Positions 2,716 through 48,086 of a stretch of DNA of 64,000 nt are shown here, piece by piece (the first letter of the stretch is position 1; each line of letters starts with the position of its first letter). Source of the DNA: Phycisphaerae bacterium (lineage in GTDB: Bacteria; Planctomycetota; Phycisphaerae; UBA1845); contig DAOQSN010000003.1 in NCBI GenBank assembly GCA_035356615.1, positions 9,835 to 73,834 on the forward strand, given 5' to 3'. A program made the translations under genes and the position numbers. The notes beneath the pieces were generated by a model, which did no database searches, was not told the origin of the DNA, and saw nothing but the letters and a program-made list of their open reading frames with translations.

Positions 2716-5700
2716 CTAGCCACCGCCCCGCGTTGCCTCCTCGACGACGCGGATTTCGTCGTCTGTCAGACCGTAGAGCTCGTAGACAAGCCGGTCGATC
2801 TGTCGGTCGGTGGCGTCGATCTGGCGCTCGAGGGCGGTCCGCTTGTGCGGGGTCTTCGCCGCGGGAAGGGCCTGGTGCAGGTCGAGCATCGTCTGGACGA
2901 GGGTGACGAGGCGGTGGTAGCGTCCTCGCGGGCGCGGGGCCGCACGACCGGGAGGGCAAACCGGGAGACTGCGCGTTTCCTTCAAGACGATCTTCGGAAA
3001 ATCGTCACGTTGAGCGATAGTCGACTTATGCAGGAAATACCAGGACAGAAGTCGGCTGTTAAGGATACCAAGCAAGTACCTGAGATCGGGCGCACCGGGA
3101 AGGGCGAGCACCGATTGCATCGACTTGTTCGTCACGAAGTCTTGTGATACCATGACAGCTTGAATTCGGAATTTCCGGCTGATGAGCTCGCGGAGCAGAA
3201 GCCGAGGTCCGGTGAAGTACCGTTCCGGCTTCGGCTCCGCGAGGGTATCGTCAAACTGAATGAACGCCGGCGGCCCCGGTTCGTAGGTGTATCTGCGCAC
3301 GGTCCCGGTGAACGCCGGGCGCGCGTGTCGGCCCCGCGAACGCCCCGTGAGCGAAAACGGTGTGACGCCTCGCTGGATGTCAGCGAAAGTGCTGAACGGG
3401 CGAGCGACGCTCTCAATCTTGCCGAGGATGGATGTAGCCGCGTCATCTGCGCAGGTCAGATACTCGTCCCTGTTGTGCGCGAGCCACCGCGTGAAGTCTG
3501 CCGCAAGGTAGTCCTCGTCTATCTCCGAGCTCTCCGAAATCCGATGCCGCTTCGGGAACGTTCGGAGTCTGACCGGACACGGCACGGTCCGTGGCCACTG
3601 GAGACGGTCCGCACGCTTGGCCAGGACAAACATAGTCGTGTCAACCCAGGCGCGAAAGACATCGTACGGGAGGTTCACGAAAACTCGCGGATCCGTGGTA
3701 CAAGCGAGCAGCCGACGTAGAGGCGAGAAATCCGCGCCGCTGTACCAGCCGGTCGGGGTGATGAACGCGATCAGCCCCCCAGACTTCGCCAGACGAACCG
3801 CCTGCTCTATGAAGAGGGCGTAGCTGTCCACCCCTGAAGAAACGCCTTCAAAGCGACTTCGCAGATACAGAGACTCAGGCGCGCTGATTGCGGCTCCATA
3901 CGGCGGGTTTCCGATGACCGCGTCGAAGCCGCAATCGGGGTCGGGGGCCCGGGACTGGGGAGTGGGGACTGGGGACTGGGCGCCTGCAACCCGAGCCCCG
4001 GAACCTGAGCCCCTGCCGCCCGGGCCTGACCCCCGAAACACCTCTGGGAACTCAGTCTTCCAGTCGAAGACGTTGATGCGCAGGCGCTCGTCCTCGTCGA
4101 ACATGTTCAATTGCTGCCCGTTGTAGAAGTCCGGGCCGATCAGCGAGTTGCCGCACTTGATGTTGCGGTTCAGGTCGGGCAGGGCCCGTTCGTGGAAGAG
4201 CCGGAGCGTCGAGTCGATCGTCTCGCCGGTCTCGCCCTCCAGCACCTTCAGCAGCAACGACAGCTTGGTCGTCTCGACGGCCTGCGGATCGATGTCCACG
4301 CCGTAGATGTGGTTCAGCAGAATCCGCTTCTTTTCCTGGATGGTGAGGCGCCATTGACCGCCGGCGGCTTGGTAGATGGGAAGCGACGAACGGCGGGAGG
4401 CCTTGTCCGCAGATGACGCAGATTGACGCAGATTACATACCTGTGATGCCGGCTGCTGATCTGCGTTAATCGGCGAAATCTGCGGACCCGATCCGGGCAT
4501 CTGGGCGACGTACCAGTCGCGGTGCCAGTCCAGCAGGTACTGGTACGCGCCCAGCAGGAACGATCCCGAACCGCAGGCAGGGTCGAGAATCCGCAGCCTG
4601 GAAATCGGGCCTAGGGGCTCGGGGTCAGGGGCTGGGCGGGGTTTCTTCGCAGGGCGGCGATGAGCGCGTTCAGGAGTTTTCCCACGCGCTGACAGAGATC
4701 CCAGATCGGCACGACGGCTTCCCGTTTCACCAAGTCGAGCCGCACCGCCAACGTCAGATGAGTCTCCAACTCTGCCAGCGAGCCCCGCGCCATGGAGAGG
4801 TGATGAAGGTAGTCGCCCCGGTGCGTCCGGCTGTGCCCCTCCGCGACGTTCGCCGGAATCGAGACGGCCGCTCGTTGGATCTGACTGGCCAGTCCGAAGC
4901 GCTCCTGCGCCGGCAGCGCTTTCGCCACACGGTAGACCTGCTCCACGAGGTCCATCGCTCTCTGCCACACTTCCAGGTCGCGGTAGTGCTTGACGGCCAT
5001 CGGCCTCGTCTCCCAAACCCCCACTCCCTGACCCCCGACCCCGAGTCCCGAGTCCCGAACCCCGTTCTTCGAGCAGCTTGCCGACCGTGTTCCTCACGAT
5101 GTAGTCGACGATGTAGGTCGGCGTGTAGTACACGCCGCCGGCCTTGCGAACCTCGGGCTTCTCCTCGACCTTGGCGTGGTGGCCTTTCGTCAGGCGGATC
5201 ACCTTGCCCAGGAACTGCTCATAGACGTGCCCCAGAATCTCCGGCGGTAGGACGGAGAACTCGTAGGGGCTGTCGGGGTAGTACAGGCCGCGAAGCACGT
5301 CCTTGAGCACGCGGTCATCAAGTTGCAGGCCCAGTGTCAGCTCATCGATTGCCCCGCGCCCGAACTCAGGTGTGAAGTAGAACAGCCCGGAGTTGTAGCG
5401 TTCATCGGCGCGGCGGAAGATCGCGCCCAGGCGCTCGTAGACCTTGTCCCCGTTGAGCAACCCCTGGAGTTGCCCGTAGCGCTCGATGCCCCGGTCTTCG
5501 CACAGGCGCAGGAAGACGACCCGGTCGATGGTGCGCTGGACGGCAAAGTTGAGGTCGCGGACCGATAAGTCCGGATTACGCAACGCGAAGTTCTGCGCCA
5601 GCATCTCCCGCCAGAGCTCGATCTCCCGGAGAAACTCGGCGTCCACCTCGGCCGTGCCGCGCTTGCGTTTGTTGGATTCGGCGTATTGGTCGAAGGCACC

Positions 5701-6249
5701 CTTAAGGACGGCCTCCTTGGCGAACAAGCCGCTGATCCAATCCCAGTGGGCGGCGTATTGATCGCAGGTGCAGTAGAAGACGCGGGCCGTGGCGGGCTTG
5801 TCCGTTGGCGCAGGGCGGATGCGGCAGTCGTAAACCGCGAACTCCTCGAAGTCCGTCAGGACGGAGAGGGGCAGCTTGCTGGTCCAGGCGTAGCGACGGA
5901 GTTGATAAGCCGCCTCCGGATCGCTACTCAGGGCGACCGCCGGCTTCTTCGCCTCGACGAAGAACTTGCGCGTGCCGCCGATGCGGAAGCAGTAGTCGGG
6001 TGCCTTGGTGGCCCCGCCGATCTTGATGGCGTCCTCGTGGATGACGTCCTTGTAGGCTTCGGCCAGCCCGCCCTCGTTGTCCACGTCCCAGCCGAGGGCT
6101 TCGAAAAAGGGGTCGATGAACTCGCGGCGCACCTGGGTCTCATGGTAGCCTGGCGAGCCATACGCTTCGCGGTTGCGCGCGAAGCGCTCCGCCAGCTCCA
6201 CCACCGTGGCCGGGCAGGGCGATTGCGCTTCGCGCTCTGAGGTGCTCAC
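2716..6249 (-). CDS. Type IIG restriction-modification enzyme: N-terminal PD-(D/E)XK nuclease, gamma-class N6-adenine methyltransferase (Eco57I/BpuSI-like) and TaqI-like C-terminal specificity domain
   Basis: Nuclease motif APDYCF...KFFVEAKKP. GVYYTPTYIVDYIVRNTVGKLL block. Motif I ILDPACGSGSFLLGAY. Motif IV VIGNPPYG. TRD-type LGILNSRLLSWYF. The probable start is GTG at 6249; the longer ORF to 6486 would overlap the kinase gene. The ORF is continuous but contains three palindromic insertions, listed as separate features. Confidence 0.85.
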   Translation of the reverse strand: MSTSEREAQSPCPATVVELAERFARNREAYGSPGYHETQVRREFIDPFFEALGWDVDNEGGLAEAYKDVIHEDAIKIGGATKAPDYCFRIGGTRKFFVEAKKPAVALSSDPEAAYQLRRYAWTSKLPLSVLTDFEEFAVYDCRIRPAPTDKPATARVFYCTCDQYAAHWDWISGLFAKEAVLKGAFDQYAESNKRKRGTAEVDAEFLREIELWREMLAQNFALRNPDLSVRDLNFAVQRTIDRVVFLRLCEDRGIERYGQLQGLLNGDKVYERLGAIFRRADERYNSGLFYFTPEFGRGAIDELTLGLQLDDRVLKDVLRGLYYPDSPYEFSVLPPEILGHVYEQFLGKVIRLTKGHHAKVEEKPEVRKAGGVYYTPTYIVDYIVRNTVGKLLEERGSGLGTRGRGSGSGGLGDEADGRQALPRPGSVAESDGPRGAGLPCGESAAGAGALRTGQSDPTSGRLDSGERRGGAQPDAPGRLPSSPLHGAGLAGRVGDSSDVGGAARLGETGSRRADLGSLSARGKTPERAHRRPAKKPRPAPDPEPLGPISRLRILDPACGSGSFLLGAYQYLLDWHRDWYVAQMPGSGPQISPINADQQPASQVCNLRQSASSADKASRRSSLPIYQAAGGQWRLTIQEKKRILLNHIYGVDIDPQAVETTKLSLLLKVLEGETGETIDSTLRLFHERALPDLNRNIKCGNSLIGPDFYNGQQLNMFDEDERLRINVFDWKTEFPEVFRGSGPGGRGSGSGARVAGAQSPVPTPQSRAPDPDCGFDAVIGNPPYGAAISAPESLYLRSRFEGVSSGVDSYALFIEQAVRLAKSGGLIAFITPTGWYSGADFSPLRRLLACTTDPRVFVNLPYDVFRAWVDTTMFVLAKRADRLQWPRTVPCPVRLRTFPKRHRISESSEIDEDYLAADFTRWLAHNRDEYLTCADDAATSILGKIESVARPFSTFADIQRGVTPFSLTGRSRGRHARPAFTGTVRRYTYEPGPPAFIQFDDTLAEPKPERYFTGPRLLLRELISRKFRIQAVMVSQDFVTNKSMQSVLALPGAPDLRYLLGILNSRLLSWYFLHKSTIAQRDDFPKIVLKETRSLPVCPPGRAAPRPRGRYHRLVTLVQTMLDLHQALPAAKTPHKRTALERQIDATDRQIDRLVYELYGLTDDEIRVVEEATRGGG
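3937..4034 (-). repeat. Family A solo hairpin (no cargo) inserted in frame just upstream of the NPPY motif
   Basis: GGGGTCGGGGGCCCGGG (3937-3953) pairs with CCCGGGCCTGACCCCC (4019-4034). The GGGACTGGGG/GGGAGTGGGG strings are shared with the full copy. It translates as GSGPGGRGSGSGARVAGAQSPVPTPQSRAPDP in the host ORF. Confidence 0.55.
4407..4485 (-). repeat. Family C hairpin (CCGCAGAT...ACGCAGAT arms) inserted in frame in the Type IIG gene
   Basis: CCGCAGATGACGCAGATTGACGCAGAT (4407-4433) is an imperfect inverted repeat of ATCTGCGTTAATCGGCGAAATCTGCGG (4459-4485). It translates as ...ISPINADQQPASQVCNLRQSASSADK... between the conserved DWHRDWY and IYQAAGGQWRLT blocks. Confidence 0.6.
4611..5000 (-). 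CDS. Four-helix-bundle protein (23S rRNA intervening-sequence protein / Avd-like family), nested inside the Type IIG gene in a different frame
   Basis: MAVKHYRDLEVWQRAMDLVEQVYRVAKALPAQERFGLASQIQRAAVSIPANVAEGHSR...YLHHLSMARGSLAELETHLTLA is the textbook sequence pattern of this family. ATG at 5000 follows GGGAGACGAGG. Confidence 0.85.
   Translation of the reverse strand: MAVKHYRDLEVWQRAMDLVEQVYRVAKALPAQERFGLASQIQRAAVSIPANVAEGHSRTHRGDYLHHLSMARGSLAELETHLTLAVRLDLVKREAVVPIWDLCQRVGKLLNALIAALRRNPAQPLTPSP
4614..5064 (-). mobile_element. IVS-like palindromic element (family A, full copy) carrying the four-helix-bundle gene
   Basis: On the gene strand, a G-rich arm (5064->5017, ...GGGACTCGGGGTCGGGGGTCAGGGAGTGGGGG) and a partly complementary C-rich arm (4641->4614, CCCCGCCCAGCCCCTGACCCCGAGCCCC) bracket the cargo ORF. 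Confidence 0.6.
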
Positions 6250-6328
6250 GGCAGGGAGAATAGCAGGCGTCGCGCCGGGCTTCAACGCCTGGGCGACACG
6301 GCGCAGGAGCCAGCGGGAGCGCCGGTTG

Positions 6329-7285
6329 TCACTGTGCCAGTTCGTCCGGCAGATCGGCGAGGAAGTCTTCGAGGGGCAGCAGGCCGGTCTCGGCCAGGTC
6401 GGCTTCGAGTTCCTCGTCCAAGCCGAGGACGGTCTCGCCGGAGGCGGCCAACTCGCCTTCCGGACGCAGCAGAATGGCGCGGGCAATCTCCGCCCGCTCG
6501 ATGAACGTAGGCATGTCGCGCAGCCGCCCGTCCATGTCGCCGGCGCAGCAATCCTCGATCAGACGCGCGACCGACATCGGCAGTTCCGCGCCGGCCGACT
6601 CCCCCGCCCGCGTGCGCAGCAGACCGGCGCGGGTGGGGGCGTCCAGGTTGATCGTCTGGTTCATTTGCGTGGGCACCGGACGGCCTGTGAGTACCCGATG
6701 CAGGGCCGCCCCCAGCCCGAACACGTCGGTCCGCTGGTCCAGCCGCTCCATCCGCACCTGCTCCGGTGCGATGTAGTCCGGGGTCCCCTGAATCTTGGTC
6801 TTGGCCTCTCCCAGCCGCGAGCTTTGCCCGAAGTCGATGAGCTTCACCTGGTCGTTGGGCATCAGCAGGATGTTGCCCGGCTTTAAGTCGGCATGCACGT
6901 ACCCGGCGCAGTGCATGGCGTGGAGCCCCTCGGCCGCCCGGACGAACACCCGCAGCATGTCCGGGATGCCGCGCGGCGCCTTCCCATCGGTCAAGGGCAC
7001 GCCGTCCACGTACTCCATGAACAGCATCGCGCCGCGCAGCCGGAAGCGCTGGCGGATCATCCGCAACTCGTACACCTTGCGAATGGCGGGATGGTCGATC
7101 AGTGACCCGATCGTGTACTCCGCCCGCAGCAGATTGGCTATGCGCACGTCCTCGGGCGACTGAATCTTGACGATCTTAACGGCGTAATCTCGCCCCGTGC
7201 GCATACACCGGGCACGATAGATGCGCGACTGGGCACCCGTCCCGAGCTTCTCTAGAAGCCGGAAGTTTGGGATGTCAAGTGTCAA
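6329..7285 (-). CDS. Hanks-type serine/threonine protein kinase with acidic C-terminal tail
   Basis: Gly-loop LGTGAQSRIY, AVKIV lysine, catalytic HADLKPGNILL, DFG, GTPDYIAPE. Confidence 0.9.
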   Translation of the reverse strand: MTLDIPNFRLLEKLGTGAQSRIYRARCMRTGRDYAVKIVKIQSPEDVRIANLLRAEYTIGSLIDHPAIRKVYELRMIRQRFRLRGAMLFMEYVDGVPLTDGKAPRGIPDMLRVFVRAAEGLHAMHCAGYVHADLKPGNILLMPNDQVKLIDFGQSSRLGEAKTKIQGTPDYIAPEQVRMERLDQRTDVFGLGAALHRVLTGRPVPTQMNQTINLDAPTRAGLLRTRAGESAGAELPMSVARLIEDCCAGDMDGRLRDMPTFIERAEIARAILLRPEGELAASGETVLGLDEELEADLAETGLLPLEDFLADLPDELAQ

Positions 7286-28427: not shown

Positions 28428-28522
28428 GTGGCACGGGCATCCTGCCCGTGGCCGCGCGCGGGTTCGAGCGTACGGCGGGTGATCCCTCTCCCTCACAGGG
28501 AGAGGGGGTAGGGGTGAGGGTG
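28428..28522. repeat. Two adjacent dispersed-repeat hairpins (CACGGGCA..TGCCCGTG and CCCTCTCCCT..AGGGAGAGGG + GGTAGGGGTGAGGG) in a convergent intergenic region
   Basis: gtggcacgggcatcctgcccgtggc at 28428-28452. ccctctccctcacagggagagggggtaggggtgagggtgg at 28484-28522. Confidence 0.8.
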
Positions 28523-28566
28523 GCGGAGGCGAGGGCGCGCGGGGCGGCACCGCTGCCTGCGATGTT

Positions 28567-36738: not shown

Positions 36739-37219
36739 GATCTTCCTCCTTAGTCTCGACGATCGTCGTGCCGCCGCCACCGCCAGCGCGATCATTCTAA
36801 TCCGAGTTGCCCTCTTCGTCCGCGCCTCCACACACCCGACTTGCCGGAACTTACACACTTTACGGAAGCGTCTCTTGGCATCCTATAGCCTGCCCTTCCC
36901 TCGCGTCAAACTCCGCGGGGAGGCGTGCCTCAATCGGGGGTTGGCGGGGGGATTGGTGGTTCAGGCTACCCGACCAGAACCGGCATGCGGTGGCCGAGGA
37001 TGCCCCATGAGGCGGAGCACGGTGAGCACACTCCGTGGTCACAACTCTCGGGCGCGGCGCAACTTGTGGTCGCCGGGACGCACGGAACATATAGTTGACC
37101 GTGCGCAACCGTGCGACAATCGGGGTATCGCTGCCCCGCGTGGGCTGAAACCCCGTATGTGCTTAGCATCTGGTGGGCGGTGGGTAAGCGTGCTTGTGCT
37201 CCGCCCGGCGTGTTCGCTT

Positions 37220-37262
37220 CCCCTACCCTCACCCCAGCCCCTCTCCCTACGAGGGAGAGGGG
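37220..37262. repeat. Dispersed repeat CCCCTACCCTCACCCC-AGCCCCTCTCCCTacgAGGGAGAGGGG (opposite orientation to the 28484 copy)
   Basis: Read directly. Confidence 0.85.
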
Positions 37263-41260: not shown

Positions 41261-41295
41261 CCCCTCTCCCCCGGGGAGAGGGGCAGGGGTGAGGG
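41261..41295. repeat. Dispersed repeat CCCCTCTCCCCCGGGGAGAGGGGCAGGGGTGAGGG (a degenerate copy lies at about 41201-41232)
   Basis: Read directly. Confidence 0.8.
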
Positions 41296-41873
41296 CCGCG
41301 GAGGCGGGTGCATGCTTACGACTCGGAGGCAAGGTTGCCCGCGACTCCTCCGGAGGGGACGCCGCGGCCACGACACGCGCGGCGATGGATCGTCAGTCGC
41401 GGCGACGTGGGGGCTGCCGCTCCTCGGAGGTGCCGGCGGCTGCTGCTACGCTCGCCTGCCGGACTCCGCCTGATCCGCGGTGTACCGGCAGGTGGGCGTT
41501 CAACGAACCCCATCTTGCGGGTCGTGCGGGCAGCGCCCTGATCGCCCGGGAGCCGAAGGTCGCCGGATCGCCGGCGTGCGGGAGGTTGCCGGTAGCCCGT
41601 CGTGCAGGAGATGCCCACGGATTGCCCGCGTGCGGGAGGTTGGCGAATCGCCCGCGTGCCGGGCGGGGTCGGTCCTCCCCGGCCGGGGCCGGTCTAGACC
41701 GCCGGGGCTTGCCCGGGGTCGTGGGTGGATTAGAATGCTGCCGGTGGTGAGGACGTGGCCGGCCGGGGCGGCGACCCCGGCGGGCGTCGGGTGCTACGGC
41801 CACGCCCGCGAGGGTGGGTCGGTCCTGCACCCCAGCCGCAGAGGCCGACGCTGCCCAGCGGCGAAGCCCGAAA

Positions 41874-43252
<1,379 letters not shown>

Positions 43253-47573: not shown

Positions 47574-48086
47574 CGTGTCACCTCCATTGTTCACTTCCCC
47601 CCCCCATGCCGGGCGAGACACACAATCGCCTCCCGGACGGCCGGGGGCAAGCTCGGCCACGCTTTCACCACCGCCGCAAGCTGGGGGTCCGCCGCTTCCG
47701 TTCGGGGTCCGTCCGGTTCCCGAGGGGGGTCCGCCGGGGCCGGTTTTCTGCGCCCAACTGCTGACAGTTCTGCTGACGCGCGGGCTGGGGGTTTCGTAAG
47801 TCCTTGTCCCGTAACGTCTTGTGGCGCCGGGCATCGGTCTACGGAACCGAAGGTTGGAGGTTCGAATCCTCCGCGGCGCGATTTCAACGGTTTGTGATTG
47901 ACGCGGGTGGATCTCTACGAGGGGTGATTCTGCGCGCAGAGCCGGCGGCCCAGGGGCAGGCTCGCTTGACTCGGGACGCCGGCGGGGAGGCAGTGTGCTG
48001 CCTGGGGTCGGGGGGCGGCCCGCGGGGTACATTCGGACCTGGCGTCACTGCCCGGTGACGGCGGTGGCGGCGGGAGCAGGGACGCT

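Follow-up and report, generated by a model that had tools for sequence, protein, structure and literature searches.

A PF05635 guest gene nested in the open reading frame of a Type IIG restriction–modification gene of a Phycisphaerae bacterium

We describe a 474-nt cassette within a Type IIG restriction–modification (R-M) gene in a 64,000-nt stretch of DNA from a Phycisphaerae bacterium (assembly GCA_035356615.1, contig DAOQSN010000003.1, positions 9,835 to 73,834; hereafter the window, to which coordinates refer unless another locus is named). The cassette carries, in another frame of the same strand, a complete gene for a four-helix-bundle protein of the PF05635 family, i.e., the family of the proteins specified by intervening sequences (IVSs) of 23S rRNA genes, and it is bracketed by complementary arrays of tandem heptamers. 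Comparison with about 100 related loci makes it probable that this is an IVS-type guest cassette, which the host enzyme translates through as a disordered loop, with the guest protein being made from its own ribosome-binding site. The features of the host gene and the cassette are as follows:

2716..6249, minus strand: Type IIG (Eco57I-like) R-M gene, product P0001 of 1177 aa (annotation, Pfam, alignment)
4597..5070, minus strand: whole insert of 158 host codons, between ...NTVGKLL and LRILDPACG (alignment, linker-length census, per-locus extraction)
4611..5000, minus strand: guest gene for a 129-aa PF05635 four-helix-bundle protein (23S rRNA IVS protein / S23p family), in frame +1 with respect to the host
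5008..5014, minus strand: Shine-Dalgarno-like GGGAGAC, 7 nt upstream of the guest ATG
5012..5064, minus strand: 5′ arm, G-rich on the mRNA, a period-7 tandem array (7 copies), read in the host frame as the Gly/Ser-rich linker GSGLGTRGRGSGSGGLG
4600..4644, minus strand: 3′ arm, C-rich on the mRNA, complementary to the 5′ arm, read in the host frame as the Pro-rich linker PRPAPDPEPLGP

The guest cassette and its host gene

From its ATG at 5000 the guest gene specifies 129 amino acids; the open reading frame (ORF) extends further upstream, to a GTG (4611–5024; 137 aa), and ends in a TAG stop codon at 4611–4613. The protein matches the Pfam model 23S_rRNA_IVP (PF05635) over profile positions 1–106 of 106 (E = 2.5e-36; 124.6 bits with a cutoff of 33.8). 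By sequence, it is a homologue of solved pentameric four-helix-bundle structures, matching PDB entries 2GSC (E = 1.3e-25) and 2RLD (E = 9.8e-8), each with five chains. The Shine-Dalgarno-like element has counterparts (GGAG or GGAGG at a similar spacing before the guest start) in all nested copies inspected, and a search of the window's cassette and its surroundings gave no site resembling a promoter. The original prediction, made from the letters of the window alone, had placed a complete 129-aa four-helix-bundle gene in the other frame of a Type IIG ORF, on the same strand as its host and with its own start and Shine-Dalgarno-like sequence, and is confirmed in each of these respects, the strand of both genes being the minus strand. 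The exact guest protein sequence was not found in a collection of 15 billion proteins, and the gene at 2716–6249 in this metagenome-assembled genome (MAG) is annotated by NCBI only as a 462-aa C-terminal product (HNQ22672.1), from which it appears that annotation pipelines split the host or miss the guest.

The open frame around the host product P0001 spans 2716..6486 on the minus strand. P0001 contains the Pfam domains HSDR_N, MmeI_Mtase/N6_Mtase, Eco57I (8.9e-31) and TaqI_C, laid out as an N-terminal HSDR_N-type nuclease region, a gamma-class N6-adenine methyltransferase domain and a TaqI_C target-recognition domain. Alignment with homologues shows its motifs to be intact (D...EAK, motif I LDPACGSGSF and motif IV NPPYG). 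The domain composition of this single polypeptide is that of a Type IIG (Eco57I/MmeI-like) enzyme, and an identical protein was found in several independent assemblies. AlphaFold models P0001 with a mean predicted local distance difference test score (pLDDT) of 79 and a predicted template modelling score (pTM) of 0.78; pLDDT falls below 50 only at residues 1–4, 402–541, 588–620 and 744–765, the last three segments corresponding to the cassette and two smaller repeat hairpin inserts.

Where the window has its insert, typical homologues have about 10 codons (EGKTPKQASK); some 155 codons of filler before motif I had been predicted, close to the 158 measured. The arms are 76% complementary over 37 nt (4600–4636 with 5020–5056, both period-7 tandem arrays) and 85% complementary over a 27-nt core, in keeping with the G-rich arm and the partly complementary C-rich arm that the original prediction had seen on either side. 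The 3′ arm overlaps the last codons and the stop codon of the guest gene; the peptide ALPRPGSVAESDGPR is an example of what the host frame is predicted to specify within the overlap. In Rfam, no known RNA family was found for the arms, even at E ≤ 1, nor did anything in 3800–5300 match; no rRNA was found in the window. Alignment with homologues had also been expected to give exact borders with any target-site duplication, and no duplication was seen at the aligned cassette junctions.

Insertion, recurrence and selection on two reading frames

The insertion site was examined in 20 aligned homologues and, for linker length, in 100. Of these 100, 45 have the YYTP block separated from motif I by 21 residues and only 12 by more than 100, by which the cassette is identified as an insertion at a normally short-linker site, as had been proposed relative to uninterrupted homologues. 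The original prediction had named a segment of similar length in homologues from unrelated taxa as an argument against insertion. Such a segment does occur in other phyla, but it is the cassette itself, with an intact PF05635 ORF, and most homologues have the short linker, so that the insertion stands. The cassette-bearing locus L002 and the cassette-less L088 share 93% nucleotide identity over the 900 nt upstream and about 93% over the ~480 nt that can be aligned of the 900 nt examined downstream; the linker site in L088 holds other small hairpin repeats in place of the cassette, including a GCAGAT/GCGAAATCTGCG repeat related to that of the smaller insert at 4405–4487 in the window. The clade nearest to the window has the cassette in place of the ancestral EGKTP... 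linker, which is not simply split by it.

Seven long homologues fetched by protein (L001–L007, L001 being the window's own copy) all carry an intact PF05635 ORF at the same site and in the host+1 frame, the guest ORFs of L002–L007 being 62–89% identical to the window's. A genome scan with one genome per species yielded 79 further loci, eight of which are nested in a long ORF. The hosts are four R-M homologues (from Caldilineaceae, Verrucomicrobiota, Thermodesulfobacteriota and one unclassified MAG), an MmeI-like methyltransferase with the cassette just upstream of motif I, an N6_N4 methyltransferase, another N6 methyltransferase and an SNF2 helicase of a Methanosarcinales archaeon (44% G+C). 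Altogether, 11 cassette-carrying R-M homologues from several phyla were examined; the guests nested in homologous R-M genes are 55–91% identical to the window's, the more distant ones 55–77%. In addition, a cassette is nested in an Eco57I-type methyltransferase gene on a viral contig.

One profile of the host-frame peptide scores the known nested cases at 127–145 bits. An index-free search of 1.84 billion representative proteins with a host-frame profile gave 264 matches, 43 of them of at least 600 aa. These long matches include about 25 Eco57I/MmeI-type methyltransferases, two or three N6_N4 methyltransferases, three DnaE proteins, two histidine kinases and two STAND NTPases, and within methyltransferases the signature is found at three different loops. 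In one DnaE case, inspected at the DNA level, the guest ORF is intact, stands in the same relation to the host frame and lies between (GGGAACA)n/(TGTTCCC)n arms. At the protein level, the histidine kinases P0152 (residues 330–431) and P0190 (residues 988–1095), which are unrelated proteins, both bear the signature just before profile position 37–38 of HATPase_c. The bias of the nested copies toward DNA methyltransferases is real; tolerance, hitch-hiking with mobile R-M genes and a functional partnership are conceivable reasons.

Free-standing copies occur in many phyla, where they likewise have a short-tandem-repeat array at the 5′ side and its complement at the 3′ side, the repeat unit varying from genome to genome. 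Sequence comparison thus defines the cassette as a discrete unit, found both free-standing and nested in many large proteins. Genes adjoining the free-standing copies are co-directional with them in 57 of 70 cases upstream and in 42 of 67 downstream (by crude ORF calls). Among loci L009–L087, an ABC-transporter ATPase gene comes before six of the free-standing cassettes and a MacB/FtsX permease gene after eight; this position within operons recurs, perhaps through inheritance or preference. A general link of free-standing PF05635 genes with R-M operons was rejected, about 70 copies having diverse housekeeping neighbours with no R-M enrichment.

Selection acts differently on the two frames. The host frame has no stop codon in 15 out of 15 nested loci, nor in the viral and the DnaE copies, and each of 71 free-standing copies has 1–11 stops in the host-equivalent frame, where a calibrated null expects 2–6; the third frame always contains 3–15. 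As a null model, we resampled the synonymous codons of the guest protein with locus-specific codon usage. The model fits the free-standing copies (4.02 stops observed, 4.01 expected), none of 51 being open, and under the same null all 13 nested lineages are open, with a probability of openness per nested locus of 0.0005–0.083. The original prediction had the host frame open across the whole insert, which holds for the window copy, and cautioned that at this G+C content an open frame alone proves nothing; for the single sequence, that caution was justified (P = 0.083). Between copies, substitutions in the overlap fall 25:19:56 on guest codon positions 1:2:3, and differences in ordinary host coding sequence fall 25:21:54 on codon positions. 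The pattern in the overlap indicates that the guest protein is conserved and that the host-frame peptide varies except for the avoidance of stops. Judged by these substitution patterns, the guest ORF is under ordinary purifying selection; by the stop counts and the null model, selection keeps the host frame stop-free across the cassette, its amino-acid sequence being otherwise free.

In neighbour-joining trees, cassette-bearing R-M genes occupy at least four places amongst the hosts, and the nested guest proteins interleave with free-standing ones. The divergences of hosts and guests are incongruent: L001 and L005 are 78% identical in the host and 91% in the guest, and L007 and L005 are 89–94% identical in the host and 70% in the guest. 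The scattered placement and the incongruent divergences do not fit, as far as neighbour-joining goes, a single ancient insertion followed by strict vertical descent, and argue for repeated gain, loss or exchange at the R-M site rather than one inherited insertion.

The R-M genes themselves also vary. Their last 30–70 residues (the IDATDRQIDxLVYELYGLT helix) are duplicated downstream of several related R-M genes, although no such copy was seen downstream of the window's own gene, and the target-recognition halves differ between close relatives. Both observations may point to a cassette-like exchange of specificity domains. The extra C-terminal copies, in coordinates of the respective loci, are:

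L002, 4463–4555 and 5358–5474
L004, 4746–4943
L005, 8273–8413
L006, 8554–8703

Proposed expression of the nested cassette and competing explanations

The arrangement suggests how both products could be made from one transcript. The cassette comprises a 5′ heptamer array, a ribosome-binding site, the PF05635 gene and a complementary 3′ heptamer array, set co-directionally in the inter-domain linker of the R-M enzyme, just upstream of methyltransferase motif I. Ribosomes on the R-M mRNA would read through it and produce a full-length enzyme with a surface loop, in which the arms are predicted to form the Gly/Ser-rich and Pro-rich linkers and the body about 115 disordered residues. The guest protein would be made separately, by internal initiation at its own Shine-Dalgarno sequence and ATG on the host transcript. 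Presumably, only insertions in the host+1 frame relation survive; any stop in the reading frame that lies one base upstream of that of the guest could be removed by synonymous changes in the guest.

Three outcomes had been proposed for the insert: a large disordered loop, processing of the stem at the RNA level, and an enzyme made as two halves. The open frames and the AlphaFold model favour the loop, since neither obligatory cleavage by RNase III nor a two-halves enzyme needs an open host frame; the latter two are not favoured. That RNase III cuts the stem in part would be plausible by analogy. It is unlikely that RNA processing dominates, i.e., that RNase III cuts the arm stem, leaving the enzyme unmade or in two halves and the cassette acting as a switch or silencer of the R-M gene. 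The arms do pair with each other over about 40 nt in both the minimum free energy (MFE) and the centroid folds, and across the family cognate arms are specifically complementary: they pair at −53.5 kcal/mol, as compared to −42.3 kcal/mol for non-cognate arms, and in 13 loci, with one expected by chance, no arm among 85 pairs better than the cognate one. Moreover, the stems of canonical IVSs with an ORF of the PF05635 family are cut by RNase III (PMC4990558). Obligatory cleavage, however, gives no reason for the ~150 stop-free host codons in every nested lineage. At the 3′ junction we saw no Shine-Dalgarno sequence with a start codon from which a methyltransferase half could be restarted, and the same arrangement is found in dnaE, which is normally essential.

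In another explanation, which we consider improbable, the cassette is functional and not selfish: the four-helix-bundle protein would act together with DNA methyltransferases, those of Type IIG and others, or regulate them, its nesting serving co-expression in fixed proportion. The strong purifying selection on the guest gene would suit an Avd-like, nucleic-acid-binding pentamer in that role, as would the preponderance of methyltransferases (about 27 of the 43 long matches, at three different sites) and the fact that all eight nested cases in the genome scan have a methyltransferase or a helicase as host. Yet closely related R-M genes lack the cassette, DnaE, histidine kinases and STAND NTPases host nested copies too, and the free-standing copies, beside unrelated housekeeping genes (e.g., for ABC transporters, an aldolase or a tRNA synthetase), show no enrichment for R-M neighbours.

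A broader scheme seems equally doubtful to us. PF05635 cassettes would be widespread guest genes in any kind of transcribed DNA (rRNA, operon spacers and ORFs), with the heptamer arms as an RNA-level insulator or processing signal; in nested copies the stem would be cut and the message rejoined or the enzyme split, with read-through only as a fallback, and control would lie with the pentameric guest protein, bound to the arms of its own cassette. If the stem is cut by RNase III, R-M mRNA would be traded for guest mRNA; were the cut-stem reading true, the cassette would represent an RNase III-dependent, intron-like element in bacterial mRNAs.

That the host is a pseudogene, or that its frame is open by an accident of high G+C content after disruption by a mobile element, is very improbable: NCBI annotates the gene in pieces, the window copy alone would be open by chance at P = 0.083 and alternative frames at this G+C run for hundreds of codons (e.g., 444 codons in L002), but the catalytic motifs are all intact in a confidently modelled protein, that protein recurs identically in several independent assemblies, and the 13 out of 13 open nested lineages contrast with 0 out of 51 free-standing copies under the same null. 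We also considered whether a frameshift might join the nuclease half with the guest protein; this is ruled out by the stops that the guest frame of L003 has in the 5′ arm.

Several points weigh against translational read-through of an IVS-type guest cassette. The chance of an open host frame in the window copy is not small by itself, and the argument rests on comparative data from lineages that are not fully independent; both the host and the guest tree are quick neighbour-joining trees without support values. We infer translation of either frame from conservation, and the 462-aa C-terminal piece in the NCBI annotation would be compatible with a split or inactive enzyme. Neither a mobility enzyme nor a target-site duplication was found. 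The RNA folding that the original prediction had called for supports it in part: the arms pair as described above, but the region as a whole folds no more stably than shuffled sequences (z-score −0.95), because any sequence at such a G+C content (66%) folds well.

Relation to known elements and implications

The closest likeness is with the IVSs of 23S rRNA in Leptospira, Coxiella, Brucella and Xanthomonas. These share with the cassette an S23p/PF05635 ORF, complementary borders that form a long stem, a row of tandem heptamers ahead of the ORF, the sense orientation within the transcript of the host and the lack of an own promoter. The original prediction had recognised this architecture, and the complementary arms, the heptamers upstream of the ORF and the sense orientation bear it out. 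The Coxiella IVS, which RNase III cuts, has a terminal stem, with tandem heptamers (GACAGAT)n ahead of its S23p ORF (PMC4990558). In L040, the free-standing cassette has arms of (GCAGAAA/GCAGAGA)n. The cassette resembles an IVS in that complementary borders enclose an ORF; in contrast, it does not lie in helix 25 or helix 45 of a 23S rRNA gene. Its host is a protein-coding ORF in which the reading frame is maintained; excision by RNase III is known for IVSs. The Coxiella ORF is decaying, whereas the guest ORF is under purifying selection.

Palindromic elements of Rickettsia (RPEs) were reportedly described in-frame in protein-coding genes by Ogata et al. in 2000. RPEs and MITEs (in full, miniature inverted-repeat transposable elements) are in-frame selfish repeats in ORFs, as are two smaller inserts of the host gene:

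4405..4487, minus strand: second in-frame repeat insert, a cargo-less hairpin of (TGACGCAGAT)n and its complement, at host residues about 588–620
3935..4035, minus strand: third in-frame repeat insert, a cargo-less hairpin just before motif IV, at host residues about 744–765

In the hairpin at 4405–4487, which has a period of 10, arms of 29 nt are 86% complementary and fold at −48.8 kcal/mol (z = −4.8); alignment shows it to be missing from most homologues. The hairpin at 3935–4035, G-rich at the 5′ and C-rich at the 3′ side on the mRNA like the cassette arms, includes (GGGACTG)4.3 and is common to the closest R-M relatives, being missing from most homologues. It is the only other cassette-type hairpin within the 64-kb window and may be an empty-arms derivative of the cassette. 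Both hairpins are in-frame repeats of the MITE/RPE type. The cassette is not: RPEs and MITEs are short and non-coding, and the 474-nt cassette has a conserved gene of 129 codons in a second frame, about 390 nt of it being dual-coding. The tolerance of ORFs for palindromic repeats and MITEs comes from their staying in frame and being read as surface loops (reviewed in PMC10969869).

Inteins, with or without homing endonuclease domains, also insert in frame, as selfish elements, into large conserved proteins, DnaE and DNA-modifying enzymes among them, and recur at identical sites of divergent homologues. The cassette is not an intein; no splicing-junction residues of the intein type are apparent at its aligned junctions, which hold the repeat-encoded Gly/Ser and Pro linkers, and its host-frame peptide is unconserved and predicted to be disordered, the conserved ORF being in another frame.

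With regard to the heptamers, the GGGACTG unit at 3951–3980 is the complement of the cyanobacterial STRR1 (CCCCAGT). Mazel et al. are said to have described such heptanucleotide tandem repeats (STRR, short tandemly repeated repetitive sequences) in heterocystous cyanobacteria in 1990. The arms are tandem heptamers as well; here they belong to a Phycisphaerae genome and lie as inverted arrays on either side of a cargo gene, and we found no description that links STRR repeats to cargo-flanking inverted arrays.

Avd, the accessory protein of diversity-generating retroelements (DGRs), has a related pentameric four-helix-bundle fold, and PF05635 is the Pfam family that detects Avd-like proteins (PMC10053308). 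The guest protein is not a DGR accessory protein: it scores 31.1 bits with the bAvd model, below the cutoff of 40, and there is no reverse transcriptase among the neighbouring genes, which specify POR, a metallophosphatase, a protein kinase and dockerin proteins.

Elsewhere in the window, tRNA genes lie at 41874–41947 and 47824–47880 (the second a weak match of 31.8 bits), and a small palindromic repeat, CCCTCTCCC-N4/5-GGGAGAGGGG then (N)AGGGGTGAGGG, occurs in three copies that look intergenic:

28480–28525
37212–37262
41262–41300

Long same-strand overlaps between bacterial genes are usually dismissed as annotation artefacts. The comparative sequence evidence makes the cassette a rare and well-supported example, in bacteria, of one gene lying inside another: some 390 nt are read in two frames, with normal purifying selection on one frame and only the avoidance of stops in the other, and this is seen across phyla and host families. 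No description of nested, dual-coding PF05635 cassettes was found in the searchable literature. As gene callers miss the guest or split the host, both are systematically mis-annotated. The three permissive loops of Type IIG enzymes and those of DnaE and histidine kinases, which accept insertions of ~150 residues, would be useful for engineering. The 30-year-old puzzle of the 23S rRNA IVSs is thereby tied to a broader set of heptamer-armed cassettes in operons and ORFs, and the idea that the IVS may be just one landing site of a general guest element becomes testable.

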